Assembly (NCBI GenBank): GCA_030167865.1
Contig: JALAGF010004448.1
Span: forward strand, 1-58,349
DNA from: Craspedostauros australis
Taxonomy: Eukaryota
DNA: 58,349 nucleotides
Direction: 5' to 3'
Part shown: positions 32,319-54,892 of the stretch, piece after piece
Numbering within the stretch: position 1 is the first letter of the stretch
How the letters are laid out: the number at the start of each line of letters is the position of its first letter
Translations under genes and position numbers: made by a program
The notes under the pieces: generated by a model
Databases searched by the model: none
What the model was told of the DNA's origin: nothing
The model's input: only the letters and a program-made list of their open reading frames with translations

Positions 32319-33599
32319 ATGTCTCAACCACTCAACAACAACGAGACCGTGAAGTTCGTACACGCCAACAAGCGAGCAAAGAAAGAGAATGACGACGATG
32401 ATGATAATGACCATGAGAAACACTTGATTGTCGTGAAGTTCCATCAGTTCTCTGAGATCAACTACAAGAGAGAAACGGAGACGTTCTCTCCTGTCTTTGA
32501 GTGCGGCGGTGCTCGATGGAAGGTGAACCTGAAGTTCTCAAAAGATGATGCACAGTCAGGGGAAGACTCTGACTCGCCTCAAGGATATGAGTTTGGGATG
32601 TATCTTTATTTCGACGAAGCGCCATGGCTGTTGGGTGAAGAGTACTCTGCCAATTACACAGCCTCGATTCCGAAGTTGGGTATCACCAGGACCGCAGGAG
32701 AAAAAATGTATCCCTTGGAAAAATATGCCGGATGGGGATGGGACAAAGTTACGACCATGAGGCATGTGCTCGACCATGGACTCGATGATGGCATTCTGTC
32801 TGTCCACATCAAGTTCCATCACCTTCAACACATCAGCAAGCGCTGGACTCCATCTCTAAGTTTCAACAAAGAACGGCTCAAGGTGCTTCGAACCGAGGCT
32901 CACACTGACATCACCTTCGTGGTCGGCACTGGCGATCAGCAACAGCGCATCAAGGCCAACACCTCATTCGTACTTGTGGGTGCACCAGCCATGAAATCAT
33001 TCATTGATGAAGCTACATCTGTGGACGAGGAAGATGATGACGGAAAGTCAATCTCGTTTCCAACGATCGACCCCGACCATTTCCGATTCATGCTTCGTTT
33101 CATCTATGCTGACGACATATCATTCGTTGCTGATGATACAACCCAAAGCGAGCTGACCAAGCTACTGGTTGTTGCCAATCGTTTTGGCTGTTGGAGACTC
33201 AAGGTTTGGTTGGAGACCGAACTCGCAGCGAAGCATCTGAATGTGGACACATGCGTCGATCTTCTGTTGTTCGCAGATGCGAATAGCTGCTATGTGCTGA
33301 AAGAAGAGAGCATCAAGGTGGTGGGGAAGAATATGACAGAAGTATGGCGGCAACGTAAGGTCGAACCACTGATCGAATCTGTTGAGCTGCTGAAGGAGAT
33401 TTATCAGTATGCAACTTGCGAGGATTTGACGAAAACAACTGGAGACGGATTTGATCAAATGCGGATCGATGAGCTGTATGAATGGTTGGAGAAAAGAGAT
33501 GATGTGATGTTGGAAGAGGACATGGACCGGTCCTCTCTGCTAGAGAAGATTCGATCATTGGAGACCAAGCAGCAGAGCGACAGTAGTGAAGCCAATTGA
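32319..33599 (+). CDS. MATH-BTB/POZ (SPOP-like) protein, copy A, 426 aa
   Basis: MATH-like VKFHQFS...SPVFECGGARW...GMYLY...GWGW...LDDGILSVHI; BTB DITFVVG...IKAN...IDPDHFRFMLRFIY...LLVVANRFGC..LK; BACK-like CVDLLLFADANSCYVLKE. Confidence 0.92.
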   Translation: MSQPLNNNETVKFVHANKRAKKENDDDDDNDHEKHLIVVKFHQFSEINYKRETETFSPVFECGGARWKVNLKFSKDDAQSGEDSDSPQGYEFGMYLYFDEAPWLLGEEYSANYTASIPKLGITRTAGEKMYPLEKYAGWGWDKVTTMRHVLDHGLDDGILSVHIKFHHLQHISKRWTPSLSFNKERLKVLRTEAHTDITFVVGTGDQQQRIKANTSFVLVGAPAMKSFIDEATSVDEEDDDGKSISFPTIDPDHFRFMLRFIYADDISFVADDTTQSELTKLLVVANRFGCWRLKVWLETELAAKHLNVDTCVDLLLFADANSCYVLKEESIKVVGKNMTEVWRQRKVEPLIESVELLKEIYQYATCEDLTKTTGDGFDQMRIDELYEWLEKRDDVMLEEDMDRSSLLEKIRSLETKQQSDSSEAN

Positions 33600-34975
33600 T
33601 TGGATGTGGCAAGGAGGAGATTGGGATGAGGTGGGTGATAAAATAGGAACGTACACTCCACGACGCACTCCACGACATGCTGGCATTGAGAAGCATTGAG
33701 AAGCTTCAGCACGTTGAGGCACCAATCCAGCATGGAGTGGAGGTTTGGTGCTTTGCTCTGTTCTCTGTTCATTCCGAAGCAGGAGCATGGACAACACAGT
33801 GCTTCTGTCACAGGCTCCCTCGCAGTTGAAGATGTCGTCGTTGTGGAGCACAGAAGATGAGCCAGATCCTTCCTCCTCCATGCATGGGCCCCAACAGCAA
33901 CCATCGTGGCCGACTCACGCTCGCAGAGATCTGATAGATGTACTATTCTATTCTACGATCTACTATGTAGAACTGAGTGTCCCAGGACAGGGGATGTAGT
34001 ACACACAGAGCGCATCGTGACGGTTTTGGATTGTGGCACATTTGAACTTGTTCTTCAAACGTTTTTAACGGCTGGATCTGTTGTTCTGAATCGCTCCAAC
34101 AAACAACAACCAACACGATCACTCTGTTGTGATGTGTCACCATGATCCTCATCTGCAGCCCGCACAACACATGGCAGACAACAATGGAGACAACTCGCTG
34201 GATCGTCACAACCAGAGCAAACGTCAGCGGAACCGCGGCATAGTCGGACGACTATGGCCATGTACGGAGAGGCCACTTCAGAGAGAAAGTCTGCACTCTC
34301 GATACGAGTGTTCCACGCCGTGACAGGGATGCCAATTCATCGTTCGCAACGGAGAATGGGTCCTCCCACTTCAATTCCACACGTTCGCTCCTTGTTCCAC
34401 CGTGGCCATCAACAGAGTACCATACCTACCACGCTCCGCAGAGCCACACTGCACAATACTTATGATACACGATCGTGTGAATGCCATCGATACTTTGCGC
34501 TGGAGAATCATGATGATTTTACTTGGGCAAGGTACCGTAATGTCTCTGATACGACAGCCATCAATCCGTCAATTCACTATCACATCTCCACGTGATCGCA
34601 CGATCGTGTGACCATGTGATCACGGAGTATTGCGCAGCATGATGCAGATGCAGATACAGACGATCTGAGCACTCGTGCCGTGACTACCATGGGCTACGGT
34701 ATGGTTCCACGCTCAGGGCAGTGCCATAGTATCGTGGGCTGTCGTCCTCTACATGATGACCTCTCATCCATGTGGGAACGTTGAGCGGCAAGTCGAGCAC
34801 AATGATGATGCAGCGTGGAATCGATGCTGTCTATGGTTCCAGATTGTACAATTTGGTCATAAACCGCACATAAACTGCTCATGGACCCTTCATCTGCCCC
34901 CCTTCCAACCATCCGCCTCTTCCTCCATCCCTCACTTCCTTTCATTCTCGTTTCAGAACCACATCATCTTCGACG

Positions 34976-36265
34976 ATGTTTCAAACACACAACAAAAACA
35001 ACAACGAAACCGTGAAGGTCGTACACGTCAACAAGCGAGCAAAGAGAGAGAATCACGATGACGACAACGATGATGACCATGAGAAACATTTTATTGTCGT
35101 GAAGTTCCATCAGTTCTCTGAGATCGACTACAAGAGAGACACGGACAAATACTCTCCTGTCTTTGAGTGCGGCGGTGCTCGATGGAAGTTGAATCTGATG
35201 TTCTCAAAAGATGATGCACAGTCGGGGGAAGACTCTGATTCGCCTCAAGGATATCGTGTTGGGGTGTATCTTTATCTCGACGAAGCGCCATGGTTGTTGG
35301 GTGAAGAGTACTCTGTCAATTACGCAGCCTCGATTCCCAAGTTGGATATCACTAAGACCTCAGGAGAAAGTACATTTCGTTTGGGCAAAAGTAACGGATG
35401 TGGATGGCGCAGAGTTACGACCATGAAGCGTGTGCTCGACCGTGGACTCGATGATGACACCCTCTCTGTCCACATCAAGTTCGCTCACCTTCAGCACATC
35501 TGCAAGCTCTGGGCTCCATCCCTCGGTTTCAACAAAGAACGGCTCAATATGCTTCGTACAGGAACTCACTCCGACATCGCCTTCGTTGTTGGCTCCGACG
35601 ATCAGCAACAGCGCATCAAGGCCAACACCATGCTGTTGTTGATGGGTGCACCAGCCATGAAATCATTCATTGATGAAGCTACAACCGCCAACGAGGAAGA
35701 TGATGGCGAAAAGTCAATCTCGTTTCCAACGATCGACCCCGACCATTTCCGATTCGTGCTTCGTTTCATCTATGCTGATGACACATCCTTCCTTACAGAT
35801 GACACGACCCAGCGTCAATTGCAAGATCTGCTGATCGTCGCCAACCACTTCGGTTGTTGGAAGCTCAAGATCTTGCTGGAGACGAAGCTGACAGCGAAGC
35901 ATCTTAATGTGGATTCATGTGTCGATCTTCTGCTGTTCGCAGATGCGAACAGCTGCTATGTGCTGAAAGAAGAGTGCATCAAGGTGGTGGTGAAGAATAT
36001 GGTCAAAGTATTACGGCAACGTGAGGCCAGTCAACTGATCGAGTCAGTTGAGCTGATGAGGGAGATTCATCTGTGTGCAAGTTGCGAGGACTTGACGACA
36101 ACAGCTGGAGACGGATTTGATCAAATGCGGATCGATGAGCTGTATGAATGGTTGGAGAAAAGAGATGATGTGATGTTGGAAGAGGACATGGACCGGTCCT
36201 CTCTGCTAGAGAAGATTCGATCATTGGAGACCAAGCAGCAGAGCGACAGTAGTGAAGCCAATTGA
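34976..36265 (+). CDS. MATH-BTB/POZ protein, copy B, 429 aa
   Basis: Full-length paralog of copy A with an intact ORF. Confidence 0.92.
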   Translation: MFQTHNKNNNETVKVVHVNKRAKRENHDDDNDDDHEKHFIVVKFHQFSEIDYKRDTDKYSPVFECGGARWKLNLMFSKDDAQSGEDSDSPQGYRVGVYLYLDEAPWLLGEEYSVNYAASIPKLDITKTSGESTFRLGKSNGCGWRRVTTMKRVLDRGLDDDTLSVHIKFAHLQHICKLWAPSLGFNKERLNMLRTGTHSDIAFVVGSDDQQQRIKANTMLLLMGAPAMKSFIDEATTANEEDDGEKSISFPTIDPDHFRFVLRFIYADDTSFLTDDTTQRQLQDLLIVANHFGCWKLKILLETKLTAKHLNVDSCVDLLLFADANSCYVLKEECIKVVVKNMVKVLRQREASQLIESVELMREIHLCASCEDLTTTAGDGFDQMRIDELYEWLEKRDDVMLEEDMDRSSLLEKIRSLETKQQSDSSEAN

Positions 36266-37208
36266 TTGGATGTGGCAAGGAGGAGATTGGGATGAGGTGG
36301 GTGATAAAATAGGAACGTACACTCCACAACACACTCCACAACACACTCCACAACACTCTGGCATTGATAAGCATTGAGAAGCTTCAGCACGTTGAGGCAC
36401 TAATCCAACATGGAGTGGAGTTTTGTTACTTTGTTCTGCTCTCTGGTCATTCCGAAGCAGGAGCATGGACGACTCAGTGGTTCTGCCAGAGGCTTACTCG
36501 CAGTTGAAGATGTCGTCGTTGTGGAGTACGGAAGATGAGCTGTGCTCTTACGATCTACTCCTGCGGGCATGATCCCTGACAGCGGCTCGTCGACTCATCG
36601 ATCTGGTCGACGCGGAGCTCTCTGGAGACAGAGATGTGTTCGAACAGAGAACGTGTGGCGCGCAAAAAGCGCAGCCAAGCGTTTGGTTTGCCATTTTTGA
36701 ACTTGTTCATCAAACGTCTTCTAACGGTTGTGATCATAAATCCGAAATCAACACACATCGTGTCACCATCACAAACCACACAACAACACAAAGGGACAAA
36801 GTCCTCCGTTCTGCCCCCCAGCCGCACCCATCCCGGAGCCCCCACCACCACCAACAGGACATACGACTAGTTGACACTCTTCCCTCGGTGGCAGGATCTG
36901 TTCCGTCCTCGCTGCCTCTCTTGGTTCCGAGACGAAGCTCTTCGTTTGTTGTGACATCAAAGATAGCTCGTAGTCATACGGGTGTTGTGATTGCCACACT
37001 CACCATCACTCTCTGGTGCGATACGAGTCGGGACATCCATCGAGCCTCTTCCTCCACAACCAAATCAATACGCAGTCATCATATCATATTATATGATACT
37101 TGCAAAACCAGGAATCAATCCGGGACGATCACCTGCGCCGAGGCTAAAACACAGAGTTGATCCATCCTTCCAGCAGATCATTCTGCAGAATCAACATCAA
37201 GGTGGATC

Positions 37209-38643
37209 ATGTCAAAACGCCCTCGTGTCAACTCCATCTCTAGCTCGTCAGAGCCTGGCTTTCAATACGAAGAACGCACTATCGGAGAACGCACTATCGA
37301 AGAACGCACTATCAATCAGGGCGTGAAGGTTGTGCACGTCAACAAGCGAGCAAAGAGGGAAGATTGCGGTGATGACTGACAACGACAACAACAACAACGA
37401 CGACAATGACAGCGACAACGACCATGAGAAAGACGTGATCGTTGTCAAGTTCCATCAGTTCTCAAACATCGATTTCAAGTCAAAACAACGCACATACATA
37501 TCCTCTCCTGTCTTCGAGTGTGGTGGTGTGCGATGGAACTTGAAGCTCACGTTCTCAACAGACAGCACACTGTCAGGAGAAGGGCCCGACTCATCCCAAA
37601 CCTACCATCTTGGAGTGTACCTGTTTCTTGACGACGCGCCATGGCTATTGGGAGAAGAGTATGCTGTCATCAGTACAATATCGATCCCCAAGCTTGCCAT
37701 CTCAGATCGCGGGGAAGAGCCAGACTTGTATCGTGTGGATACCAATGGTGCATGGGGAAGCGACGATTGCACGACCGTGAACAAAGTGCTCGATGATGGA
37801 CTCGATGACGACACCCTCTCTGTGCACATCAAGTTCCATCACCTTCAACACATCTGCAATCGCTGGACACCATCACTCGCCTTCAACAGGGACAGACTCA
37901 AGATGCTTCGGACCGAGACGTATGCCGACATCACCTTCGTGGTTGGCACCGGCGATCAACAGCAACGCATCAAGGCCAACACCATGTTCATACTGGTGGG
38001 AAATCCAGCCATGCGATTGCTCATGGCTGGAGCCACACCCGTAGAAACGACGTCTGCACCTGCGACAGCTGTTGGTGGCAGCATTGGCGATGAAAAGTGC
38101 ATCTCGCTGCCAGAAACCAATCCACGCCACTTTCGATCCATGCTCCGATTCATCTATGCGGACGACATATCCTTCATCACGGATGATACCACACAAGCGG
38201 AGCTGCGAGATCTGTTGCTCGTCGCCCATCGCTTCGGTTGTTGGAAGCTCAAGATCGTGGTGGAGACGAGACTCGCAGCGAAGCATCTGGATATGGCTTC
38301 ATGTGTCGATCTGCTGGTGTTCGCAGATGCGAACAGGTGCTGTGTGTTGGAGGAAGAGTGTGTCAAGGTGGTCCTCAAGAACTTGACTGAGGTGTTCCAG
38401 CGTGGCCATCACACCCAGCTGGCCAGATCGGGCGAGTTGATGAAGAAGATAGCTGAGAGTCCTGGCCACAAGCGCAGCAGCGGAGACGACAGGTTCGATG
38501 GAATGCGAATCGATGAGCTGTACAGGTGGTTGGATGAGAGGGAGGATGTGGTGTTGGAGGGAGATATGGGGCGGGGATGTCTGTTGGAGAGGGTTCGATC
38601 ATTGGAGAGCAAGGGGCAGAGTGCGAATGGGGGAGTCGATTGA
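37209..38643 (+). pseudogene. Divergent MATH-BTB copy C with a 1-nt frameshift near 37377; may still be expressed from ATG 37372 as 423 aa
   Basis: The frame from ATG 37209 reads MSKRPRVN...GVKVVHVNKRAKREDCGDD-stop (TGA 37377-37379) and carries the family N-terminal motif. The MATH-BTB body continues in the +1 frame to 38643. Confidence 0.7.
37269..37313 (+). repeat. 15-bp tandem repeat x3 (GAAGAACGCACTATC; EERTI) in the N-terminus of copy C
   Basis: Read directly. Confidence 0.9.
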
Positions 38644-40065
38644 TTGGATGTGCCAAGAATGAGATGGGGATGTAGAGGAGAGTGAAGTAGATGATGAAGT
38701 GGGCAATGGGGTAAGAGTGCGCACTTCACACACTGCAGATACACAGGCATTGATACGCGTGAGTACTGTACGTTGGGATGTATCATACCTGTAGAGCATA
38801 CTGGGTTATTCTCTTGTTGTCTGTTCGTTCCAAGACGAGGCGAGGACACACATCGCCCTGTGGTCGTGACAACCAATGGTTGTGTCAACGGGTTGCTCGC
38901 AGCTGAAGACGTCATCGCTGTGGAACATCGCAGATGGGCCAGATCTTTGCTCCTGCAGGCATGGTCCCCAACAGCAACCACAATGGCCGACTCACGCTCG
39001 CAGAGATCACATAGATGTACTAATACATTATATCATATCATATGATCTACTATGCAGAATTGAATGTCTCTGCACAGGGGATTCAGCGCACAACGAGTGC
39101 GCCGCGGCGATTTTGCAAGGTGCCACATTTGAACTTGTTCTTCAAACGTCTTTAACGGCTGGATTTGTTGTGTTCTGAATTGCCCCAACAAACAACATCG
39201 ACACGGTCACTCTGTTGCGATGTGTCACCATGATCCTCATCTGCGATCTGCACAACACATGGAAGACAACAACGGAGACAACTCGCTGGATCGTCACAAC
39301 CAGAGAAAACATCAGCGGAGGCAACTCGCTGCATAGTAGTACGACTACGAACAAGTACGGAGAGGCCACTTCAGAGAGACAGTCTTCACTCTCGATACGA
39401 GTATGGCATACCGTGCCAGAGATGCCAATTCATCGTTCGCAACGGAGAATGGGTCCTCCCGCTTCGATCCCACACGTCTACTCCTTGTTCCTTGCTCCAC
39501 CGTGGCCATCAACAGAGTACCATACCTACCACGCTCCGCAGAGCAACATTGTACAATACTTATGGTACACGATCGTGTGAATGCCATCGATACTTTACGC
39601 TGGAGAATCATGATGATGTTACGTTGGTAAGGTGCCGTGATGTCTCCAATGCGACGGCCATCAATCCGTCAATGCACGATCACGTCTACACGTGATCGTG
39701 TGATTGTGTGATCACGGAGTATTGCACAGCAAGATGCGGAGACAGATACAGACGATCCGAGCACTCGTGCAGTGACTACCATGGGCTACGGCATGATTCC
39801 ACGCTCAGCGCAGTGCCTTAGTATCGTGAGCTGTCGTACTCTGCATGATGACCTCTCATCCATGTGGGAACGTTGAGCGGCAAGTTGAGCGGCGACCAGG
39901 GGAACATGATGCAGCGTGGAATTGATGCTGTCCATGGTTTCAGATTGTACAATTTGCTCATAAACTGCTCATGTACCCTTCATCTGTCCCCCTTCCAAGC
40001 ATCCGCATCTTCCTCCATCCCTCACTTACTCTCATTCTCGTTTCAGAACCACATCATCTTCGACG

Positions 40066-41355
40066 ATGTCTCAAACACACAACAACAACGAGACCGTGAA
40101 TGTCGCACACGTCAACAAGCGAGCAAAGAGAGAGAATCACGACGACGATGACCATGAGAAACACTTGATTGTCGTGAAGTTCCATCAGTTCTCTGAGATC
40201 AACTACAAGAGAGAAACGGAGACGTACTCTCCTGTCTTTGAATGCGGCGGTGCTCGATGGAAGTTGAAACTGCAATTCTCAAAAAAAGATGCAACGTCAG
40301 GGAAAGGCTCTGACTCGCCTCAAGGATATCGTGTTGGGATGTATCTTTATCTTGACGAAGCGCCATGGTTGTTGGGTGAAGAGTACTCTGCCAATTACAC
40401 AGCCTCGATTCCCAAGTTGGATATCACTAAACATGGGAACGAGCCAGACTTGTATCGTTTGGACAAAAGTAGTGCATGGGGATGGGACAAAGTTACGACC
40501 ATGAGGCATGTGCTCGACCATGGACTCGATGACGACATTCTGTCTGTCCACATCAAGTTCGATCACCTTCAACACATCAGCAAGCGCTGGGCTCCATCCC
40601 TCAGTTTCAACAAAGAACGGCTCAAGATGCTTCGTACAGGATCTTTCGCCGACGTCACCTTCGTTGTTGGCACCGGCGATCAGCAACAACGCATCAAGGC
40701 CAACACCTCATTCGTACTTGTGGGTGCACCATCCATGAAATCATTTATTGATGAAGCTTCAACTGTCAAGGAGGAAGATGGTGACGGAAAATCCATCTCG
40801 TTTCCAACGATCGACCCCGACCATTTCCGATTCATGCTTCGTTTCATCTATGCTGATGATACATCCTTCCTCACAGATGACACGACCCAACGTCAATTGC
40901 AAGATCTGCTGATCGTCGCCAACCGCTTCGGTTGTTGGAAGCTCAAGATCTTGTTGGAGACGAAGCTGGCGGCGAAGCATCTTAATGTGGATTCATGTGT
41001 CGACCTTCTGTTATTTGCAGATGCACACAGCTGCTATGTGCTGAAAGAAGAGTGCATCAAGGTGGTGAGAAAGAATATGACAGAAGTGTTACATCAAAGT
41101 GAGGCCGGTCAACTGATCGAGTCTGTTCAGTTGATGAAGGAAGTCCACAAAGCTGGAAGGGACCCATCGTTCCCGTCCATAACCTGGTGGAGCACTTACT
41201 ACAAATTCAACAAAATGCGGATCGATGAGCTGTATGAATGGTTGGAGAAAAGAGATGATGTGATGATCGAAGAGGACATGGACCGGTCCTCTCTGTTGAA
41301 GAAGATTCGATCTTTGGAGACCAAGCAGCAGAGCAGCAATAGTGAAGCCAATTGA
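40066..41355 (+). CDS. MATH-BTB/POZ protein, copy D, 429 aa
   Basis: Full-length paralog with an intact ORF. Confidence 0.92.
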   Translation: MSQTHNNNETVNVAHVNKRAKRENHDDDDHEKHLIVVKFHQFSEINYKRETETYSPVFECGGARWKLKLQFSKKDATSGKGSDSPQGYRVGMYLYLDEAPWLLGEEYSANYTASIPKLDITKHGNEPDLYRLDKSSAWGWDKVTTMRHVLDHGLDDDILSVHIKFDHLQHISKRWAPSLSFNKERLKMLRTGSFADVTFVVGTGDQQQRIKANTSFVLVGAPSMKSFIDEASTVKEEDGDGKSISFPTIDPDHFRFMLRFIYADDTSFLTDDTTQRQLQDLLIVANRFGCWKLKILLETKLAAKHLNVDSCVDLLLFADAHSCYVLKEECIKVVRKNMTEVLHQSEAGQLIESVQLMKEVHKAGRDPSFPSITWWSTYYKFNKMRIDELYEWLEKRDDVMIEEDMDRSSLLKKIRSLETKQQSSNSEAN

Positions 41356-45748: not shown

Positions 45749-48109
45749 ATGCATTGGCGTCTGCTCAGACCACGCTTTCGGCATCATCAACGCAAGCATC
45801 TGCGTTGCCTTCAACTCGCATTCCCAGCTGCTCCATCCTTCCCATCAACAACCTCTTCCACTCCACCCGCAGACGACTCGGCCAAGTGGAGGTCTTCAGT
45901 GACGAATCAGAGCAGATTCACATCACTCGCAGCATTAACACCAACATTGGCACCATCGCAGTCGACATTCACATCAATACTCGGATCCACGTCATTCATA
46001 TCCTCAACTCGTACGCAACCCGCGATAGCGACGGCAGTGGCAAGGTCGATGTCGACGATGGACACCTCGAACGAAACGAAGGATGCGGAATTGCAGCCCA
46101 TCTGCATACCAGTGCACATGGTGTCAGCCGAAGCAGCAACCGAAGCAAATGACAACGCCAATGCATCCCAAGGCAACGACGCATCATCACCAACGAAGAA
46201 GACCTGCCTCGTAGATCAGTATCAGGCATTCATCGCTGCCAACCAGAACAATGAGATTGCGCAACAAATGAAGGACGAGCGCACCAATGAGCCCACCATC
46301 CTGCCAGTCGACTTCGCCATGATGCTCACAGAGCAGGAGCAGGATCTGTTGCACGTCCTGCACGAGACAGCGAAATCCGTGCAGGATGGCACCCTCACCG
46401 TCGCCACGCGGCCCGATGTCAAATCCATCACCGTGCGTGTCGCCGGCGGCTGGGTGCGCGACAAGATCATGGGCCTGCCCACGCACGATGTCGATGTCGC
46501 CTTGGATTCTTGCAGCGGGGTGGAGTTCGCGCATCTCGTGCAGTCGTGGATGGAGCAGTACAACAAGCAACACCAGCAGCTCGATGGTCAGCAGCCTCAA
46601 GCCGATGCATCCGAACGGCGGTTGGCGAATTCGCAGCACTCCAGGATGGGCGTCATTGCGGCCAATCCGTCGCAGTCGAAGCATCTAGAAACGGCGACGA
46701 TGAGGGTGTGCGGCATGGAGGTGGACTTCAACAACCTGCGACACGAGGCCTACTCGGACGTCAACTCGCGAATCCCCACGGTGGCAGGCATCGGGACGCC
46801 GTATCAGGATGCCATGCGTCGGGATTTCACCATGAACGCCCTGTTCCTCAACGTCACGCAAAGCCGCCTCGAAGACTGGACGCGCCGTGGAATGAACGAT
46901 CTCGTGCACAACAAGCTGGTCCAAACGCCCTTGCCACCATTCCAAACCTTCCAGGATGATCCGTTGCGCGTCCTGCGCGCTGTGCGATTCGGCGTGCGGT
47001 ACCGGTACCGGTTGGATGCGGACCTCATGGCCGCGGCGAAGGATCCGTCCATCCATGCCGAATTGCAGAGGAAGGTTTCACGAGAGCGCGTGGGCAAGGA
47101 GCTGGAGGGCATGCTGTCTGGCAAGCTCGCGCATCCCATCCTGGCGTTGAAAACCATCTACGACTTGCATCTCGCACCCGCCGTCTTCCTCCTGCCGACG
47201 ATGCAGACCATCACGACCAAGGCAGCAGCGACGACCATCCATGGGTCCATCGGCATCCAATCGTCGGTGGCATTGCCAGCTGTCGAGGATGCAACAACAG
47301 CGCCATCGCCGGAGGCATCGAGATTTCTGGAGAACGGCGCATGGCTCGAATCGAAGGAGTGCTTACCGTTGCTATCGAAGGTCCTGGAGAGGCTTCACAT
47401 CAGCAGCAACGTCAAATGCGCAACGCAGCTGGACGACCGTTTGGTGTACCTTGCAGCCTTCCTGCTGCCGTACTTCCGCTCCTTCTACGTGAATAAGAAG
47501 CGGAAGCAAGTGCTCGTCGTGGAGTACATGTTGCGAGACGGCATCAAGTTCAAGAACAAGGATTCGATCGGCATCGTCAAGATCATGCAGAGCGTGGATG
47601 CCATGGCGCAGTTGCTGATGCAAGGTGATGGACAATCGATGTCGTCCACCGATGCCATGGAGGTCGATCTTGCGTCGATGTCAGAACCCATGCGGCAGCT
47701 GCGGTTAGATGCGGGGCTGCTGTTGCGAGAAACGAGAGAGCTGTGGCTTACCACGTTGGTGACGGCCGCGGTGTTGGCGCTGCGGCATCAACCAGATGAC
47801 GACGAAGCAATCCTGGATCGATTCCAGAGTCTGCTGGAGACCATCGCTCAACGTCTGCAGCTGGATACATGCTGGAAGGTCCGTCCGATGCTTGACGGCA
47901 AGACCATCATGGCAGAGGTCGGCATCCCGCGCGGTCCCGAAGTGGGCGAATACAACCAGGAGCAAGTTCGGTGGAGTCTTCAGTATCCCTCTGGCACAAG
48001 GGATGATGCCATCCAGCACTTGTTGGCATTCAAAACGTCGCGGCAGTCGTCGGATTCAAAAAGCACAAGCACCGGCGAAGAACCAAAAACAAAGAAGATG
48101 CACCTGTGA
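45749..48109 (+). CDS. CCA1: CCA-adding tRNA nucleotidyltransferase (class II), 786 aa, with an N-terminal organellar transit-like extension
   Basis: Motifs RVAGGWVRDK...HDVDVALD, NPSQSKHLETAT, DFNNLR.E.Y...SRIP, DAMRRDFTMNALF, DDPLRVLRAVRF, KVSRERVGKE. Confidence 0.93.
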   Translation: MHWRLLRPRFRHHQRKHLRCLQLAFPAAPSFPSTTSSTPPADDSAKWRSSVTNQSRFTSLAALTPTLAPSQSTFTSILGSTSFISSTRTQPAIATAVARSMSTMDTSNETKDAELQPICIPVHMVSAEAATEANDNANASQGNDASSPTKKTCLVDQYQAFIAANQNNEIAQQMKDERTNEPTILPVDFAMMLTEQEQDLLHVLHETAKSVQDGTLTVATRPDVKSITVRVAGGWVRDKIMGLPTHDVDVALDSCSGVEFAHLVQSWMEQYNKQHQQLDGQQPQADASERRLANSQHSRMGVIAANPSQSKHLETATMRVCGMEVDFNNLRHEAYSDVNSRIPTVAGIGTPYQDAMRRDFTMNALFLNVTQSRLEDWTRRGMNDLVHNKLVQTPLPPFQTFQDDPLRVLRAVRFGVRYRYRLDADLMAAAKDPSIHAELQRKVSRERVGKELEGMLSGKLAHPILALKTIYDLHLAPAVFLLPTMQTITTKAAATTIHGSIGIQSSVALPAVEDATTAPSPEASRFLENGAWLESKECLPLLSKVLERLHISSNVKCATQLDDRLVYLAAFLLPYFRSFYVNKKRKQVLVVEYMLRDGIKFKNKDSIGIVKIMQSVDAMAQLLMQGDGQSMSSTDAMEVDLASMSEPMRQLRLDAGLLLRETRELWLTTLVTAAVLALRHQPDDDEAILDRFQSLLETIAQRLQLDTCWKVRPMLDGKTIMAEVGIPRGPEVGEYNQEQVRWSLQYPSGTRDDAIQHLLAFKTSRQSSDSKSTSTGEEPKTKKMHL

Positions 48110-48213
48110 TCTGCATTAACAACAGATCGACCAACGATAGAACTCAACAAATGAGCGCAAGAGCATCGTGCTTGTTCTACTCATAGAATGCGTCATCCTA
48201 TTGCCGAATTTAA

Positions 48214-49500
48214 TCAATTGGCTTCACTATTGCCGCTCTTCTGCTTGGTCTCCAATGATCGAATCTTCTTCACCAGAGCCGACCGGTCCATGTCCTCTTC
48301 GATCATCACATCATCTCTTTTCTCCAACCATTCATACAGCTCATCGATCCGCATTTGATCAAATTTGTCTCCAGCTGTGTTCGTCAAGTCCTCGCAAGTT
48401 GTATACAGATAAATCTCCCTCAGCAGCTCAACAGACTCGATCAGTGGGCCGACCTTACGTTGCCGCCATACTTCTGTCATATTCTTCTCCACCACCTTGA
48501 TGCATTCTTCCTTCATCACATAGCAGCTGTGTGCATCTGCAAATAACAGAAGATCGACGCATGAATCCACATTCAGATGCTCCGCTGTCAGCTTCGTCTC
48601 CAGCAAGATCTTGAGCTTCCAACAACCGAAGCGGTTGGCGACGATCAGCAGATCTTGCAATTGACGTTGAGTCATGTCATCTGTAAGGAAGGATATGTCG
48701 TCAGCATAGATGAAACGAAGCATGAATCGGAAATGGTTGGGATCGATCGTTGGCAGGGAGATGGATTTTCCGCCACAGTTTTCCTCGTCAACATTTGCAG
48801 CTTCATCAATGAATGAATTCATGGCTGGTGCACCCAACAACAACAGCATGGTGTTGGCCTTGATGCGCTGTTGCTGATCGCCGGTGCCAACAACGAAGGT
48901 GATGTCAGTGTGAGCCTCAGTTCGAAGCAGCTTGAGCCGTTCTTTGTTGAAACCAAGGGATGGAGTCCAGCGCTTGCTGATGTGTTGAAGGTGATGGAAC
49001 TTGATGTGGACAGACAGAATGTCATCATCGAGTCCATGGTCGAGCACATGCTTCATGGTCGTAACTTTGTCCCATCCCCATGCGCTACTTTTGTCCAAAC
49101 GATACAAGTCTGGCTCGTTCCCATGTTTAGTGATGGTAAGTTTGGGAATCGAGGCTGTGTACTTCACAAAGTACTCTTCACCCAACAACCATGGCGCTTC
49201 GTCGAGATAAAGATACATCCCAAACTGATATCCTTGAGGCGAATCAGAGTCTTCCCCTGACTGCGCATCATCCTTCGAGAACTCCAGTTTCAAATTCCAT
49301 CGAGCACCGCCGCACTCAAACACAGGAGAGTACGTCTCCGTTTCTCTCTTGTAGTTGATCTCAGAGAACTGATGGAACTTCACGACAATCAAGTGTTTCT
49401 CCTGGTCATCGTTGCCGTCGTCATCATCATTCTCTTTCTTTGTTCGCTTGTTGGCGTGTACGACCTTCACGGTCTCGTTGTTGTTGTGTGTTTGAGACAT
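48214..49500 (-). CDS. MATH-BTB/POZ protein, copy E, 428 aa
   Basis: Full-length paralog with an intact ORF. Confidence 0.92.
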   Translation of the reverse strand: MSQTHNNNETVKVVHANKRTKKENDDDDGNDDQEKHLIVVKFHQFSEINYKRETETYSPVFECGGARWNLKLEFSKDDAQSGEDSDSPQGYQFGMYLYLDEAPWLLGEEYFVKYTASIPKLTITKHGNEPDLYRLDKSSAWGWDKVTTMKHVLDHGLDDDILSVHIKFHHLQHISKRWTPSLGFNKERLKLLRTEAHTDITFVVGTGDQQQRIKANTMLLLLGAPAMNSFIDEAANVDEENCGGKSISLPTIDPNHFRFMLRFIYADDISFLTDDMTQRQLQDLLIVANRFGCWKLKILLETKLTAEHLNVDSCVDLLLFADAHSCYVMKEECIKVVEKNMTEVWRQRKVGPLIESVELLREIYLYTTCEDLTNTAGDKFDQMRIDELYEWLEKRDDVMIEEDMDRSALVKKIRSLETKQKSGNSEAN

Positions 49501-50868
49501 CGTCGAAGATGATGTGGTTCTGAAATGAGAATGCGAGTACGTGAGGGATGGAGGAAGAGACGGATGGTCATAAGGGGACAGATGAAGGGTACATGAGCGG
49601 TTTATGAGCAGTTTATGAGCAAATTGCAGAATCTGAAACCATGGACAACATCAATTCCACGCTGCATCATCATTGCACTCAACTTCACACTCAACCTCCC
49701 CGCATTGATGAGAGGTCATCATGCACAAGACGACAGCTCACGATACTAAGGCACTGCGCTGAGCGTGGAATCATGCCGTAGCCCATGTTAGTCACTGAAC
49801 GAGTGCTCAGACCATCTGTCTCTGCATCTGCATCTTGCTGCGCAATTCTCCGTGACCACACGATCACACGATCACGACGAGATGTGATGGTGAATTGACA
49901 GATCGATGGCTGTCGTATCGGAGACATCACGGTGCCTTGCCAACGTAACATCATCGTGATTCTCCAGCGTCAAGCATCGATGGCATTCACACGATCGTGA
50001 ATCATAAGTATTGTAGGTACAGTGCTGCTCTGCGAAGCGTGGTAGGTATGGTACTCTGTTGATAGCCACGGTGGAACAAGGAACAAGGAGCGGACGTGTG
50101 GGATTGAAGTGGGAGGACCTACTCTTCACTGTGAACGATGAATCGGCATCCCTGTCACGGCGTGGAACACTCGTATCGAGAGTGAAGACAGTCTCTCTGA
50201 AGTGGCCTCTCCGTACTTGTTCGTAGTTGTACTACTATGCAGCGAGTTGTCTCCGTTGTTGTGTGCCATGTGTTGTGCGGATCGCAGATGAGGATCATGG
50301 CGGCACATCGCAACAGAGTGACTGTGTTGATGTTGTTTGTTGGAGCAATTCAGAACACAATAGATCCAGCCGTTAAAGACGTTTGAAGAACAAGTTCAAA
50401 TGTGCCACCTTCCGAAACCGTCGCGACGTACTCTTTGTGCACTGCATCCCCTGTCCAGAGATATTCAGTTCTGCATAGTAGATCATATTACATAATATTC
50501 TCTGACAGTACACCTATCATATCTCTGCGAGCGTGAGTCGGCCATGATGGTTGCTGTTGGGGGTCATGCCTACAGGAGCAAAGATCTGGCCCATCTTCTG
50601 TGCTCCACAACGACGACATCTTCAACCGTGAGCAAGCCTCTGACAGAACCACCGAGTTGTCCATGCTCCTGATTCGGAATGAACAGAGAACAGAGAAAAG
50701 AACAAAGTTCCAAAACTCCACTCCATGCTGGGTTAGTGCCTCAAGGTGATCAAGCTTATCAGTGCTTATCAATGCTTATCAATGCCAGAGTGTTGTGGAG
50801 TGCGTTGTGGAGTGGGCGTTCCTATTTTATCACCCACCTCATCCCAAGCTCGTCCTTGCCACATCCAA

Positions 50869-52143
50869 TCAATTGGCTTCACTGTTGCCGTTCTGCTGCT
50901 TGGTCTCCAATGATCGAATCTTCTTCAACAGAGAGGACCGGTCCATGTCCTCTTCCAGCATCACATCATCTCTTTTCTCCAACCATTCATACAGCTCATC
51001 GATCCGCATTTGGCTGAATTCGTCTCCAGTTGTTTTCGTCAAATCCTCGCAAGTTGCAAACAGATGAATCTCCCTCATCAGCTCAAATGACTCGATCAGT
51101 TGACCAGCCTCACGTTGCCGTAATACTTTGACCATATTCTTCCTCACCACCTTGATGCACTCTTCTTTCAGCACACAGCAGCTGTGCGCATCTGCGAACA
51201 ACAGAAGATCGACACATGAATCCACATTCAGATGCTCCGCTGTCAGCTTCGTCTCCAGCAAGATCTTGAGCTTCCAACAACCGAAGTGGTTGGCGACGAT
51301 CAGCAGATCTTGCAATTGACGTTGGGTCGTGTCATCTGTGAGGAAGGATGTATCATCAGCGTAGATGAAACGAAGCATGAATCGGAAATGGTCGGGGTTG
51401 ATCGTTGGAAACGAGATTGACTTTCCGTCACCATCTTCCTCCTTGACAGTTGTAGCTTCATCAATGATTGATTTCATGGATGGTGCTCCTGCTAACACGA
51501 ATGAGGTGTTGGCCTTGATGCGCTGTTGCTGATCACCGGAGCCAACAATGAAGGTGATGTCGGCGAGAGTTCCTGTACGAAGGATCTTGAGCCGTTGTAT
51601 GTTGAAGCCGAGGGATGGAGTCCAGCGCTTGCTGATGTGTTGAAGGTGATCGAACTTGATGTGAATAGACAGAATGTCATCATCAAGTCCATGGTCGAGC
51701 ACATGCTTCATGGTCATAAGTTTGTCCCATCCCCAACTGGTAGTTTTGCCCAGACGATATGTTCTTTCTTCTGTGGTGTTGGTGGTACCCAACTTGGGAA
51801 TCGAGGCTGTGTACTTCACAGAGTACTCTTCATCCAACAACCATGACGCTTCGTCGAGATAAAGATACATCTCAAGATGATATCCTTGAGGTGAGTCAGA
51901 GCCTTTCCATGGCGTTGCTTCATCCTTTGAGAATTGTAGTTTCAACTTCCATCGAACACCGCCGCACTCAAAGACAGGAGAGTACGTCTCCGTTTCTCTC
52001 TTGTAGTTGATCTCAGAGAACTGATGGAACTTCACGACAATCAAATGTTTCCCATGGTCATCGTCGTCGTGATTCTCTCTCTTTGCTCGCTTGTTGACGT
52101 GTACGACCTTCACGGTTTCGTTGTCGTTGTGTGGTTGAGACAT
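50869..52143 (-). CDS. MATH-BTB/POZ protein, copy F, 424 aa
   Basis: Full-length paralog with an intact ORF. Confidence 0.92.
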   Translation of the reverse strand: MSQPHNDNETVKVVHVNKRAKRENHDDDDHGKHLIVVKFHQFSEINYKRETETYSPVFECGGVRWKLKLQFSKDEATPWKGSDSPQGYHLEMYLYLDEASWLLDEEYSVKYTASIPKLGTTNTTEERTYRLGKTTSWGWDKLMTMKHVLDHGLDDDILSIHIKFDHLQHISKRWTPSLGFNIQRLKILRTGTLADITFIVGSGDQQQRIKANTSFVLAGAPSMKSIIDEATTVKEEDGDGKSISFPTINPDHFRFMLRFIYADDTSFLTDDTTQRQLQDLLIVANHFGCWKLKILLETKLTAEHLNVDSCVDLLLFADAHSCCVLKEECIKVVRKNMVKVLRQREAGQLIESFELMREIHLFATCEDLTKTTGDEFSQMRIDELYEWLEKRDDVMLEEDMDRSSLLKKIRSLETKQQNGNSEAN

Positions 52144-53512
52144 CGTCGAAGATGATGTGGTTCTGAAACGAGAATGAGAGTAAGTGAGGGATGGAGGAAG
52201 CGACGGATGGTTGGAAGGGGGGCAGATGAAGGGTACATGAGCAGTTTATGTGCGGTTTATGAGCAAATTGTAGAATCTGAAACCATGGACACCAACAATT
52301 CCACGCTGCATCATGTTCCCCTGTTTGTCGCCCAACTTGCCGCTCAACTTTCCCACATGGATGGGAGGCCATCATGTAGAGGACGACAGCCCACGATACT
52401 TAGGAACTGCGCTGAGCGTGGAACCATGCCGCAGCCCACGGTAGAAATTGTAAGAGTGATCGTGGGCATCTGTATTTGATCTTGCTGCTCAATACTCCGT
52501 GACCACACGATCGTGCGATCACACGATCATTCGATCACGACGAGATGTGATGTTGAATTGACGGATTGATGGCCGTCGTGTCGGAGCCATCACGCTGGAG
52601 TTATCACGGCGTCCCGCAACGTCTGGATCACGATCGTGTCGAGTATGTCGAGTAGGGTTGCGTGGAGTGCGAGCTGCAGCATTGCTGACTTCCGCGAGGG
52701 GAGAGAAGGCCGTTCTGCGCAGTCCGTGGAATGTAGTCTTGTGATGACCACGGCGGAGCACGAGGAGGGGCAGGGTAGGAATCTCTCCTCGTACGTTTCC
52801 GCATGGAGGGTGTGTGCCCATCTCTCTGGAGTATCCTCTCCGTAAGATTATACGTATGCCATGGCTACGCTGTTTCTTTCCAATGCTCTCGTTCCAAAGA
52901 TCCAGCGAGTTGTCTCCATCGTTGTGAATCTGTTGTGCAAGTTGCGGAGGAGGGCGGTGGTGTCGCGATTGCGCCATCGTTCTTCGTTGGGGAAATGCGG
53001 AATGGTGAGAATACCGTTAAAAGACGTTTGAACAACAAGTTCAAATGTGGAAAATCAAACTTCCCGCACGCTCTTCGTGCACTGCTTGTTCCCTATTCGT
53101 CTGCACCCCGTTCTGCATCTATCATGCGCGTAGCTCTACGAGCTTGCGTTGTTCTCTGATCTTGGTATTGAAGACCAGCTACAACCATAGAAGAGTTGGC
53201 ACCTGCGTCGAAGTATGGCACACCCCCAGGCTGACGAGCATCACAGCGTCTGAACCCTCATGTATTGGAGGGTCTCGGATGGATCTGGTGCTGAACCCAC
53301 GTGATCTCGTCTCCAAATGAGTGAACAGCGACGGAAGCACCGAGAGCATCAGTTCAGTATGCGCAGAGACATGCATATATCAAGGTTGTTTGTTATGCGC
53401 TGCTTTATGCGCGGGGTAGTGACGCGTCTTCATGCATGGCGCCATTTGCTCGCATACTTCTTCATCACGTGTCACTGCCGCATCTGACCCCTTTGATCCA
53501 TTGCTGTATTCA

Positions 53513-54892
53513 TTATGCCACCAGCGATCGGATGTTCGCCAGAAGAGACGTCCGGTCCATGTCCCGATCCAGCACCACGTCGTTCCTCCTCTCCAACCAT
53601 TCGTACAGCTCATCGATCCGCATCCCATCAAACTTGTCACCATCTGCTTGACACTCCACACGGCCACTTGCACACTGGTGGATCTCCTCCATCAAGCCCA
53701 CCGCTTGGATCAGGTCGCCGGCACGGCCACGCCGGAACACTTCGCTCAAGTTCTTTCCGACCACCTTGATGCATTCTTCCTTCAATATGGAGCAGCTGTG
53801 CTCATCCGCAAACAAGAGAAGGTCAACGCACGAGTTCACGTGGAGGTGGTTCGTTGCGAGCTTGATCTCCAACAAGACCTTGAGTTTCCAACAACCGAAG
53901 GCAACGGCCACACTCAATTGATCCAGCATATCAGTTTGGCTCGTCTTATCCGCGAGGAAAGACGTGTCATCAGCGTAGACGAAGCGAAGCATGTCTCGGA
54001 AGTCCTCAGGATCGACCATCGGGAGCGCGACGCGTCTTCTGCCATCGGATGAGACAGGTGCCAGATCGATGATCGCTTGCAGCCCTGGTGCGCCCAACAG
54101 TACAAGCGCCGAATTGGCTCGGATGCGTGTTTGGTCGTGGGGTTGACCGACGACGAATGTCACATCCACCTGACGTTCGGCCCGCAGCATCTTGAGCTTC
54201 TCTCGGTTGAAAGCAAGGGTCGGAGTCCAGCGGTGGTGCTTGCGGACGAGACGGTCGAACTTCACCTGTATATGAAGGGTGCCATTCTGGATTCCACGGT
54301 TGACCATGTCCTTTGAGTTGAAACACTTTGGCCAGAGCCGCCGGCAGTCGGTGCCTGGGCGGGTTGCTCTCTCGCTGGATGTTCTGCAGTACCCAAGCTT
54401 TGGAATGGTGACTGTGTACATGACGGAGTACTCGTCACCACGACACAATTCACCGCTATCCATCTTGATGGCGATCCCAACATCAGGAGCTGTCGCCGAG
54501 CCACCTCGTCGAACTCCCCGAAAGTCCAGCTCTACCCTCCACCGAACACCGCCGCATTCGAACGAAGGGGACGTTTTAGATTCAACCCTCGTGAAATCGA
54601 TGGCGTGAAGCTGGTGGAAGTTGATGTTGACCGTGCCTCCGCCATCCCTGGCGCGGCTGTTGGGATCGCCCCAAGCAAATGGCGGTTTGCCGACATGCAC
54701 GGTCTGCACTGCCTTCGCAACTCTCGTGGGTCCCACATTCTCAGATCTCCTGGCACGCTGAGAATACACCGCGACCGCATTCGCAGAGCTCCTGGCACGT
54801 GGGGGAGACGGCGTGACCGCATTCGCAGAGCTCCTGACACGTTGGGGAGACGGTGCAGCCAGCTGCGGATCCCAGTGTTGGCGTTTTGACAT
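53513..54892 (-). CDS. MATH-BTB/POZ protein, most divergent copy G, 459 aa
   Basis: INFHQL...SPSFECGGVRW...IPKLG...RWTPTLAFNRE...DVTFVVG...FRDMLRFVYADD...FGCWKLK...CVDLLLFAD...MRIDELYEWLE. Confidence 0.9.
   Translation of the reverse strand: MSKRQHWDPQLAAPSPQRVRSSANAVTPSPPRARSSANAVAVYSQRARRSENVGPTRVAKAVQTVHVGKPPFAWGDPNSRARDGGGTVNINFHQLHAIDFTRVESKTSPSFECGGVRWRVELDFRGVRRGGSATAPDVGIAIKMDSGELCRGDEYSVMYTVTIPKLGYCRTSSERATRPGTDCRRLWPKCFNSKDMVNRGIQNGTLHIQVKFDRLVRKHHRWTPTLAFNREKLKMLRAERQVDVTFVVGQPHDQTRIRANSALVLLGAPGLQAIIDLAPVSSDGRRRVALPMVDPEDFRDMLRFVYADDTSFLADKTSQTDMLDQLSVAVAFGCWKLKVLLEIKLATNHLHVNSCVDLLLFADEHSCSILKEECIKVVGKNLSEVFRRGRAGDLIQAVGLMEEIHQCASGRVECQADGDKFDGMRIDELYEWLERRNDVVLDRDMDRTSLLANIRSLVA
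54731..54856 (-). repeat. 42-bp tandem repeat x3 (PSPQRVRSSANAVT-like) in the N-terminus of copy G
   Basis: Units begin at 54731, 54773 and 54815; the 54731 unit is degenerate. Confidence 0.85.

Follow-up and report, generated by a model that had tools for sequence, protein, structure and literature searches.

Seven related MATH-BTB genes lie together in this stretch of the Craspedostauros australis genome. The locus raises the question of how its copies came to resemble one another in patches, and whether this patchwork serves recognition, as a preliminary description proposed when it read the locus as a variable-recognition ubiquitin-ligase repertoire. Our results favour, with a probability of roughly 0.75, seven SPOP-like genes of which five young copies swap patches by interlocus gene conversion in short tracts, a process at the DNA level. 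This is a real but fairly ordinary mode of evolution for tandem gene families.

In the window (the whole stretch analysed, 58,349 nt) the seven genes are intact, intronless ATG-to-stop ORFs of 423-459 aa, and the coordinates first assigned to the cluster, 32319..54892, were correct. The copies form two converging arms inside 22.6 kb, A-D on the + strand and E-G on the - strand, flanking a unique central segment of 6.9 kb. They are regularly spaced, and gene plus spacer make up a repeat unit of about 2.66 kb. The spacers are 80-87% identical and contain no conserved ORF.

32319-33599, + strand: copy A, 426 aa, MATH-BTB-BACK-SAP-like, young mosaic group (ORF, Pfam, mosaic sites)
33600-34975, + strand: spacer of the ~2.66-kb unit (homology), with mosaic partitions here too
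34976-36265, + strand: copy B, 429 aa, young mosaic group (ORF, Pfam, mosaic sites)
37372-38643, + strand: copy C, 423 aa, diverged (~70% nt), inside the + arm (ORF, Pfam)
40066-41355, + strand: copy D, 429 aa, young mosaic group (ORF, Pfam, mosaic sites)
48214-49500, - strand: copy E, 428 aa, young mosaic group (ORF, Pfam, mosaic sites)
50869-52143, - strand: copy F, 424 aa, young mosaic group (ORF, Pfam)
53513-54892, - strand: copy G, 459 aa, oldest (~58% nt), longer N-terminus (ORF; Pfam BTB only)
31056-32318, 38644-40065, 49501-50868 and part of 52144-53512: homologous spacers

The young group (A, B, D, E and F) shares 84-90% nucleotide identity. Within the window, tblastn found no extra copy or fragment and there were no pseudogenes, all seven ORFs being intact; no viral or defence genes lie alongside the cluster. 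Transcript-derived proteins of the family are known in Craspedostauros australis. The proteins nearest to the cluster come from this species, which is also named for five of the ten closest representatives looked up, and the next-best representative is only 44% identical. The seven copies and the species of their relatives point to a lineage-specific, local tandem expansion.

All seven proteins matched BTB (PF00651) at 30.8-41.3 bits against a cut-off of 20.5. MATH (PF00917) exceeded its Pfam cut-off in D, E and F. It stayed under it in the other four copies, which counts against our preferred explanation; copy A, for example, scored 37 bits for BTB (cut-off 20.5) and 17.7 bits for MATH. MATH or MATH_2 was listed at E<=0.1 in six copies, and G had neither. 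A profile built from 39 family sequences aligned with SPOP over residues 35-358 (E 1.7e-53), with MATH aligned from residue 35. The AlphaFold model of copy F (mean pLDDT 83.8) has beta-strands at 34-170 and helices at 274-364. With this model, Foldseek returned full-length SPOP on top (E 1.8e-19), and the fold matches include the MATH domains of SPOP and USP7. Pfam matches to BACK and BACK_BPM_SPOP were all under their cut-offs; the BACK/3-box region was recognised from the profile alignment reaching SPOP residue 358 together with the helices at 274-364 of the model. At the C-terminus, SAP (PF02037) gave no match at E<=10 in the tails scanned (four of the seven: A, C, F and G), and the motif there aligns column for column, with a 3-residue insertion, with the Pfam-positive SAP of the relatives P0020 and P0023. 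Judged by this alignment, the tail is SAP-like and degenerate, outside Pfam SAP membership. The domains of copy F, all on the - strand, are placed as follows.

51655-52038, - strand: MATH
51241-51579, - strand: BTB
51052-51216, - strand: BACK-like
50908-51021, - strand: SAP-like

The cluster genes are thus MATH-BTB genes of the SPOP type, with MATH, BTB, BACK/3-box and a degenerate SAP-like tail, in agreement with the preliminary description. They have the domain order MATH, BTB, BACK/3-box in common with SPOP, HIB and plant BPM, but are only about 20% identical to SPOP, end in a degenerate SAP-like helix-loop-helix instead of SPOP's own tail, and form a local multi-copy set, not one conserved gene. 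By homology, the proteins are predicted substrate adaptors of cullin-3 ubiquitin ligases. SPOP-type adaptors bind CUL3 via the BTB alpha3-beta4 loop and the 3-box; in the alignment of the family profile with SPOP, this loop falls in an insertion region. The cluster proteins would be expected to bind CUL3, to dimerise through BTB, to differ in substrates and to locate to the nucleus.

Patchwork among the copies was first noticed in short protein motifs that group them incompatibly, and every one of these is present in our alignments: DDAQSGEDSDS in A, B and E versus KGSDS in D and F; KHGNEPDLYRLDKSSAWG in D and E; RTEAHTDITF in A and E; NTML in B and E versus NTSFVL in A, D and F; ANHFG and MVKVLRQREA in B and F; and MTEVWRQRKV in A and E. 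Of the 1272 ungapped columns in the five young copies, 344 are variable and, among these, 117 informative. Each of the ten possible 2/3 partitions was present (20, 19, 14, 13, 10, 9, 9, 5, 4 and 2 sites), and the observed PHI value was reached in 0/2000 permutations (z = -10). The single ML tree was nearly a star, with bootstrap values of just 52-60% and internal branches making up 6.4% of its length. As a null without recombination, 300 simulations were run on this tree with fitted rate heterogeneity. None of the 300 reached the observed number of informative sites (112 observed versus 64.5 +/- 7 simulated), and none attained the observed equal-partition adjacency or SSCF. The earlier statement that no single tree fits is supported. 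Parsimony segmentation found 5 topology changes, attained in 0/300 permutations; its segments include a few long ones, such as alignment columns 823-1279 and 1281-1473.

When shared runs were scored on informative sites only, four of the ten pairs were globally significant: D-E (p<0.0001), B-F (0.0056), and A-B and A-E (both 0.027). Three of these four pairs join the two arms, so the claimed sharing between + and - copies stands. In a first GENECONV-like test, some long 'shared' runs were rejected as exchange, since a patch found in A alone accounts for them. Individual tracts are given below.

33439-33661, + strand: A/B identical tract of 223 nt (B: 36105-36327), reaching past the stop codon into 3' flanking DNA
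33147-33179, + strand: A-private patch of 15 consecutive differences in the BTB helices (reached in 0/5000 permutations)
38209-38268, + strand: homogenised patch of C, common to B, D, E and F
around 41160-41168 and beyond, + strand: D-private replaced linker segment

The longest identical run in the 300 no-recombination simulations was 93 nt. The A-private patch may have come from a copy that lies beyond the window. Copy C participates in two patches only, and G gave no sign of exchange (0/6 pairs significant). Clear mosaicism is confined to the five young copies: the exchange first attributed to all seven genes holds for these five, which exchange freely, and rarely for C, but not for G.

The signal extends into non-coding DNA. 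Upstream of A, B, D and E, the spacers contain 47 informative sites, which divide 17/16/14 among the quartet partitions. Equal neighbours numbered 25/46 versus 14.7 +/- 3.2 expected (11/10000 permutations; 72/10000 in a second adjacency permutation). PHI on the 1-kb upstream spacer alone was not significant (697/3000), which counts against conversion, and the downstream flank gave no mosaic signal, with only 7 informative sites there. Also counted against conversion is the very short range of the partition clustering. The adjacency signal was lost after merging equal-partition sites <=6 nt apart (8/85 versus 7.1 expected, 4186/10000). No clustering was seen among the 22 informative sites whose codons keep their amino acid, and PHI for these sites lay above the permutation mean in 3000/3000.

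Clustered incompatible patterns, over-long shared tracts and affected non-coding flanks together suggest interlocus gene conversion as the mechanism. A tandemly duplicated unit of gene plus spacer (~2.66 kb) would have given rise to the two converging arms. Interlocus (ectopic) gene conversion would then have passed short DNA patches, from tens to about 220 bp, from one young copy to another within this group of five, within and between arms and in both coding and non-coding DNA. Each gene would thereby be a different combination drawn from a limited pool of variants, so that no single tree fits. Interlocus gene conversion is known as concerted or mosaic evolution in MHC, plant NLR clusters and antigen families. 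The cluster resembles them in its short non-reciprocal patches, its conflicting local trees and the involvement of coding sequence and flanks, but differs in that its partners include inverted copies 7-20 kb apart.

The most variable block lies in the MATH domain, on strands aligned with those that bind substrate in SPOP.

40420-40485, + strand: hypervariable block of D, aligned with the SPOP substrate-binding strands (~SPOP 111-133)
32679-32741, 35345-35407 and 37696-37761, + strand: the block in A, B and C
49072-49137, 51727-51789 and 54332-54394, - strand: the block in E, F and G

In this block 15/21 columns vary versus 153/403 elsewhere (Fisher p 0.005). Here D and E reach 94% similarity to each other and 73% to C, against just 56-63% to A, B and F. 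The block carries two old cassettes, distributed without regard to how the copies are otherwise related; C, D and E have one in common. Synonymous divergence is 0.44 in the block versus 0.14 in the remaining MATH, as expected if old cassettes were kept and their flanks homogenised. The SPOP cleft residues are Y87, F102, Y123, W131 and F133 (excerpts of PMC9690554). Hand-mapped through the profile alignment, the corresponding positions are aromatic 5/5 in A, D, E and F, 4/5 in B (with Cys at the W131 position), 3/5 in C and 2/5 in G. Another MATH variant, absent from the window, is found among the transcript proteins. Conversion would have carried the two cassettes to copies not otherwise related, and substrate preference probably varies from copy to copy as a result.

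These results bear on the rival that survives best, in which conversion is favoured by selection since it generates new MATH specificities against viral, bacterial or mating non-self proteins. It can point to the position of the block on the binding strands, the aromatic residues kept at the cleft positions of A, D, E and F, the raised synonymous divergence, the cassette common to the divergent C and D/E, the pN/pS of 1.2-1.3 in the A/B/F cassette lineage, and the further transcript variant. dN/dS was 0.26 in BTB, 0.26 in BACK, 0.60 in MATH and 0.42 overall, and 0.69 (pN/pS) in the binding block. Only within the A/B/F cassette lineage did pN/pS rise to 1.2-1.3, which was not significant (Fisher p 0.7-1.0); for block and lineage alike, 5-6 recombining sequences give little power. 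No value was significantly >1, whether overall, by domain, in the block or in the cassette lineage. Purifying selection acts on BTB and BACK, and the loop and strands aligned with the SPOP cleft are the least constrained region. Exchange was equally evident in BTB, BACK and the spacers and so resembles a general process at the DNA level; neither an adaptive sense of 'diversifying' nor an exchange aimed at recognition, both put forward earlier, is borne out. With no viral or defence genes nearby as well, we consider selected diversity unlikely.

Expanded MATH-BTB families of nematodes and grasses have been proposed to target foreign proteins. Grass MATH-BTB genes cluster in tandem arrays (excerpts of PMC4091423), and the nematode expansion shows positive selection in substrate-binding domains (excerpts of PMC5392922, citing Thomas 2006, and of PMC12951971). 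The Caenorhabditis BATH and grass families share with the cluster lineage-specific local duplication, a variable MATH and a conserved BTB. They differ from it in size (tens to hundreds of genes against seven) and in mode: those families evolve by birth and death, whereas the window contains no sign of birth and death with many pseudogenes (7/7 intact, no tblastn fragments). Positive selection is reported for BATH, but no dN/dS significantly >1 was found here. These differences in number and in pseudogenes also speak against a selected diversity generator. The term 'gene conversion' has 0 occurrences in the available portions of PMC4091423 and PMC12951971.

Nearer to the present species is Seminavis robusta, another benthic raphid diatom. 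It has species-specific tandem expansions that include ubiquitin-ligase genes, and its BTB/POZ families are biased to sexual stages, some members having high piN/piS (excerpts of PMC7335047), which lends the diversity generator some support. We liken these expanded families to the cluster without assigning orthology; in the available main text of PMC7335047 the MATH-BTB architecture is absent and 'gene conversion' has 0 occurrences.

A more elaborate version holds that old MATH-cleft cassettes are selectively kept and converted between inverted arms, among nuclear CUL3 adaptors whose heterodimerisation would yield combinatorial degron receptors against fast-changing viral, bacterial and mating-type proteins. 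The inverted arms would allow exchange without deletion of the array. We regard this cassette-shuffling repertoire as distinctly unlikely. To our knowledge, no intracellular recognition repertoire has been described in diatoms, and we know of no substrate of their cullin-3 ligases. The adaptor variants of this locus, which differ mainly on the predicted substrate-binding strands, form a compact and fully intact set. The locus offers a convenient entry point: the variants can be expressed and their degrons compared. It can also be used for measuring ectopic gene conversion, inverted repeats included, in a diatom genome. As our preferred reading has it, interlocus conversion in a young tandem family is a common process, met here in a gene class known to expand elsewhere; current views are unchanged unless selection or a role in defence or mating is demonstrated.

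Unequal crossing-over in repeated tandem birth and death, with one long chimeric junction per event, would account for the repetition of the whole 2.66-kb unit with spacers as similar as the genes, for the few long parsimony segments, and for the A/B tract at the 3' ends of adjacent genes. However, three of the four significant pairs sit on opposite, inverted arms, where a crossover would invert the centre of the locus and leave no chimera in the array. The patches are mostly 50-220 nt long with other groupings on both sides, and the copies are regularly spaced. This makes crossing-over highly improbable as the source of the mosaics.

Mis-joined or collapsed copies in the assembly would make the mosaics chimeras, and none of the seven proteins was found exactly in the protein collection, where a single-copy neighbour is found. 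Against this, the copies differ at about 1 base in 8, so that reads are copy-specific. In one other public run, a piecewise check matched 49 contigs to the locus, and 32 were >=99% identical; zero-difference contig pieces fell inside A (32493-32671) and two spacers, and 22/30 bins were covered. Between residues 107 and 258, a stretch that includes several partition changes, the transcript protein P0002 departs little from F. None of the seven frames is interrupted, and the mosaic junctions are far too many and too close for mis-joins. The chance of an artefact is very small.

The weakest reading, a rapid burst without exchange in which shared motifs are parallel changes, perhaps selected for few allowed states, fits the star-like tree and the unclustered synonymous sites, yet is practically negligible given the simulations, blocks that are nucleotide-identical over 50-223 nt in non-coding DNA too, and the evenly conflicting partitions of the neutral upstream spacers.

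Seven uninterrupted ATG-to-stop open reading frames of 423-459 codons each lie at 32319-54892, and no further copy besides these seven was found in the 58-kb window by tblastn with F, G and C as queries. The copies, and two genes in the unique segment where the arms converge, are listed below.

32319-33599, + strand: copy A
34976-36265, + strand: copy B
37372-38643, + strand: copy C, middle of the + arm
40066-41355, + strand: copy D
42091-42918, - strand: DDI1-type aspartyl protease, 275 aa (Pfam Asp_protease, E 3.9e-18), in the unique segment
45749-48109, + strand: poly(A)-polymerase/CCA-type nucleotidyltransferase, in the unique segment
48214-49500, - strand: copy E
50869-52143, - strand: copy F
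53513-54892, - strand: copy G, outer end of the - arm

The repeat unit is about 2.66 kb long and consists of the gene and a spacer of about 1.37 kb. Spacers are 80-87% identical to one another, and no open reading frame conserved between units was seen in them. Copies A, B, D, E and F are mutually 84-90% identical in nucleotide sequence, with C about 70% and G about 58% identical to them. A simple palindrome was ruled out as the source of the two arms, since C and G, at the positions listed, have no mirror partner. The unique segment is 6.9 kb long, and its DDI1-type protease is a ubiquitin-pathway protein adjoining the adaptor cluster. The window's only ambiguous bases, eight N over 86 nt at 202-287, are far from the cluster.

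The identity of the copies as MATH-BTB proteins, first proposed from the sequence alone, was borne out by domain searches, profile comparison and structure modelling, and the family assignment is sound. Pfam BTB scored above the cut-off in all seven copies and MATH (PF00917) in D, E and F; MATH or MATH_2 was listed in six of seven, and BACK matches were weak. A profile of the seven copies and 32 relatives matched human SPOP residues 35-358 (E 1.7e-53). The AlphaFold model of F (mean pLDDT 83.8) had full-length SPOP as its best Foldseek matches (E 1.8e-19). Homology predicts that the proteins work as dimeric substrate adaptors of CUL3, and an N-terminal KRAK(R/K)E motif is a putative nuclear-localisation signal.

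No Pfam SAP match was obtained on the four C-termini scanned (A, C, F and G). The conserved C-terminal motif aligns column for column, with a three-residue insertion, to the Pfam-positive SAP domains of two relatives (P0020 and P0023), and in F (50908-51021) it is modelled by AlphaFold as a helix-loop-helix. In all copies this motif is degenerate SAP-like rather than a Pfam SAP member, and the MATH-BTB-BACK-SAP architecture seems to recur in the relatives. Ankyrin-repeat relatives (P0008, P0009, P0010, P0012, P0014, P0015 and P0018, the first two from Craspedostauros australis) have the common BTB and C-terminal module at 35-43% identity. This suggests that one BTB scaffold is combined with either of two recognition domains, MATH or ankyrin.

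The preliminary description had listed short motifs shared in conflicting combinations and had argued that no single duplication tree fits the copies. All of these sharing patterns were found in our alignments exactly as stated, and the argument was upheld by site partitions, PHI, simulations and segmentation. The five young copies (A, B, D, E and F) gave 1272 ungapped columns with 344 variable sites, 117 of them parsimony-informative. All ten two-against-three groupings were present (AE 20, DE 19, DF 14, BF 13, BE 10, AB 9, AD 9, BD 5, EF 4, AF 2), and 12 more sites had three states. Equal groupings adjoin along the gene: the PHI value was matched by none of 2000 site permutations (z = -10), and this result stood when C and G were included. 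The best single maximum-likelihood tree was near-star, with bootstrap values of 52-60% and internal branches making up only 6.4% of its length.

For a no-recombination expectation, 300 alignments were simulated on this tree under the fitted GTR+G model, using the six-sequence column set. There were 112 informative sites in the real data versus 64.5 ± 7 in the simulations. None of the 300 simulations matched the real data in equal-partition adjacency (0.33 versus 0.14), in longest identical run (158 nt versus at most 93) or in the sum of squared concordant fragments. When the alignment was segmented by parsimony, with all 15 topologies for five taxa allowed, 5 topology changes were found versus at most 4 in permuted data (0/300), and 3 changes were kept under a stricter penalty (0/300 permutations).

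Shared runs were located with a GENECONV-like test on informative sites only, which replaced a version on all polymorphic sites. The long B-F, D-F, D-E and E-F runs that the earlier version had given at columns ~985-1130 were discarded as largely a product of a patch private to A. Runs were globally significant in 4 of 10 pairs (D-E p<0.0001, B-F 0.0056, A-B 0.027, A-E 0.027); A-D and B-E reached pairwise significance only, and the remaining four pairs were not significant. The A-private patch comprises 15 consecutive differences at 33147-33179, in the BTB helices (permutation 0/5000), and may have been acquired from a paralogue that lies elsewhere than in the window. Merging equal-partition sites at most 6 nt apart left 8 of 85 adjacent versus 7.1 expected. 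The adjacency excess thus vanishes on merging, which indicates that the patches are dense and short. Codons with an unchanged amino acid held 22 informative sites, which are ~60 nt apart and outside the variable blocks by construction; no clustering was seen among them (PHI above the permutation mean in 3000/3000). These 22 sites were more incompatible with their neighbours than in random order.

Mosaic structure was also detected upstream of the genes. Of the 186 variable sites in the ~1-kb spacers that precede A, B, D and E, 47 were informative and split the quartet 17/16/14. Same-partition neighbours numbered 25 of 46, versus 14.7 ± 3.2 expected (permutations 11/10000), and PHI with k=5 on the same spacers was not significant (697/3000). 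The last 460 nt upstream of the five young copies held 29 informative sites, with ten two-against-three partitions and a single site in three states (PHI 78/3000; adjacency 72/10000). No mosaic signal came from the downstream flanks, which had only 7 informative sites. A 223-nt stretch is identical between A (33439-33661) and B (36105-36327), starting within the SAP-like region and continuing past the stop codon into 3' flanking sequence.

Exchange between the + and - arms, as initially claimed, was recovered: of the four pairs with global significance, three combine copies from opposite arms. The claim that all seven genes take part stood for A, B, D, E and F, was reduced to two patches for C, and failed for G, in which no exchange was detected (0/6 pairs significant). 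One of the C patches is a cassette common to C, D and E (run p 0.0096) in the binding block, the hypervariable MATH stretch aligned to the substrate-binding strands of SPOP. The other lies at columns 1036-1095, in the stretch that holds the A-private patch, where the identity of C to B, D, E and F is 88-90% versus 70% gene-wide.

The exchange acts on the DNA itself, and short, non-reciprocal and orientation-independent patches in both coding and non-coding DNA are as expected from interlocus gene conversion. We assign a probability of roughly 0.75 to the whole statement that the mosaic observation is confirmed and that gene conversion is its best-supported mechanism. Unequal crossing-over alone, as the source of the mosaics, would leave single long junctions, and it could join inverted copies only by inverting the centre of the locus. 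Mis-assembly is unlikely, since the copies differ at about 1 base in 8. Copy D has an odd linker before the SAP-like motif (~41150-41220), with 12 extra nt and a replacement of ~60 nt; these ~60 nt are non-homologous, and a compensated frameshift was ruled out.

The variation is unevenly distributed along the protein. Compared in pairs, the five young copies gave a dN/dS of 0.42 overall, 0.26 in both BTB and BACK, 0.60 in MATH and 0.65 in the C-terminal part. Variability peaks in the 22-codon binding block directly before the conserved WGW, where 15 of 21 columns were variable versus 153 of 403 in the remainder (Fisher p 0.005), and 10 of 21 versus 23 of 403 had at least three states. SPOP binds substrates through Y87, F102, Y123, W131 and F133 (PMC9690554). 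SPOP positions were placed by hand using the profile-SPOP alignment; on this mapping the block covers about residues 111-133, including Y123, W131 and F133, and Y87 and F102 lie upstream. By the same hand mapping, the aligned cleft positions are aromatic at 5/5 in A, D, E and F, 4/5 in B, 3/5 in C and 2/5 in G.

In the block, pN (0.30) and pS (0.44) were both raised (ratio 0.69; pS 0.14 in the rest of MATH), which indicates old variants there, not fast new ones. Two cassette lineages were recognised, one with an extra codon common to C, D and E, the other in A, B, F and G. Within the block, D and E have 73% identity to C and only 56-63% to A, B and F. Together, the block variation and the cassette sharing show relaxed constraint at the recognition surface, with old cassettes moved between copies. 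The cluster had been described as diversifying, possibly for defence or non-self recognition. In the adaptive sense this was not sustained: no significant positive selection was found, with the overall ratio of 0.42 and pN/pS of 1.2-1.3 in the A/B/F lineage (Fisher p 0.7-1.0). We consider an adaptive variable-recognition or defence repertoire improbable.

Tandem, lineage-specific MATH-BTB expansions have been reported in grasses (PMC4091423) and in Caenorhabditis. For the latter, positive selection has been reported on the substrate-binding domains, as has induction of the genes by virus and microsporidia (PMC5392922 citing Thomas 2006; PMC12951971). The diatom Seminavis robusta has expanded BTB/POZ families with a sexual-stage bias, and some members have high piN/piS (PMC7335047). 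Literature searches gave no account of a MATH-BTB cluster or its mosaic evolution in diatoms; supplementary tables may list such families. Among the matches listed, titles and abstracts on gene conversion of tandem paralogs in diatoms named no BTB genes, and one diatom genome paper named SPOP, only as a shared gene.

Among 5.8 billion proteins, the only close ones were transcript-derived proteins of Craspedostauros australis, a raphid diatom. One is 76% identical to E over its full length, and a 258-aa fragment is 90% identical to F. Five of the ten closest representatives looked up were named from C. australis, including a MATH-BTB protein and two ankyrin-BTB proteins with the common BTB and C-terminal module; one more was from Stauroneis constricta. 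The exact sequences of the adaptors were present for 0 of 7 in the protein collection; the single-copy DDI1-like neighbour had a letter-for-letter match. Pattern searches for related loci in metagenome contigs gave 143 matches, none confirmed as a relative.

Four transcript proteins (P0001, P0154, P0155 and P0002) are mosaics of window-like blocks. At residues 39-106, the transcript proteins carry a MATH segment encoded by none of the seven window copies, so at least one more copy or allele exists. Three full-length forms are identical over ~330 residues and then differ; they may represent additional copies, alleles or chimeras made by the assembler, and chimeric transcript assembly may explain some other combinations. 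P0154 has a related but different form of D's odd linker, suggesting that a D-like allele or a further copy exists.

The public sequencing run X1, guessed to be RNA, was matched as contigs only and is uninformative on transcript ends or levels. It gave 49 contigs on 32250-52200, 32 of them at >=99% identity, and covered 22 of 30 bins, with no cover on B (34914-35579) and several other bins. Zero-difference pieces were found inside A and in two spacers (34488-34758 and 49758-50152); the spacer contigs reflect either transcribed spacers (long UTRs or non-coding RNA) or DNA in X1. In the unique segment, a contig of 1024 nt matched the DDI1-type protease region (41767-42790) with zero differences. 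Another zero-difference contig (44632-45187) lies over a 208-aa open reading frame without Pfam match (44534-45160, + strand), and the surrounding 42-45 kb is GC-rich with several long overlapping open reading frames on both strands.
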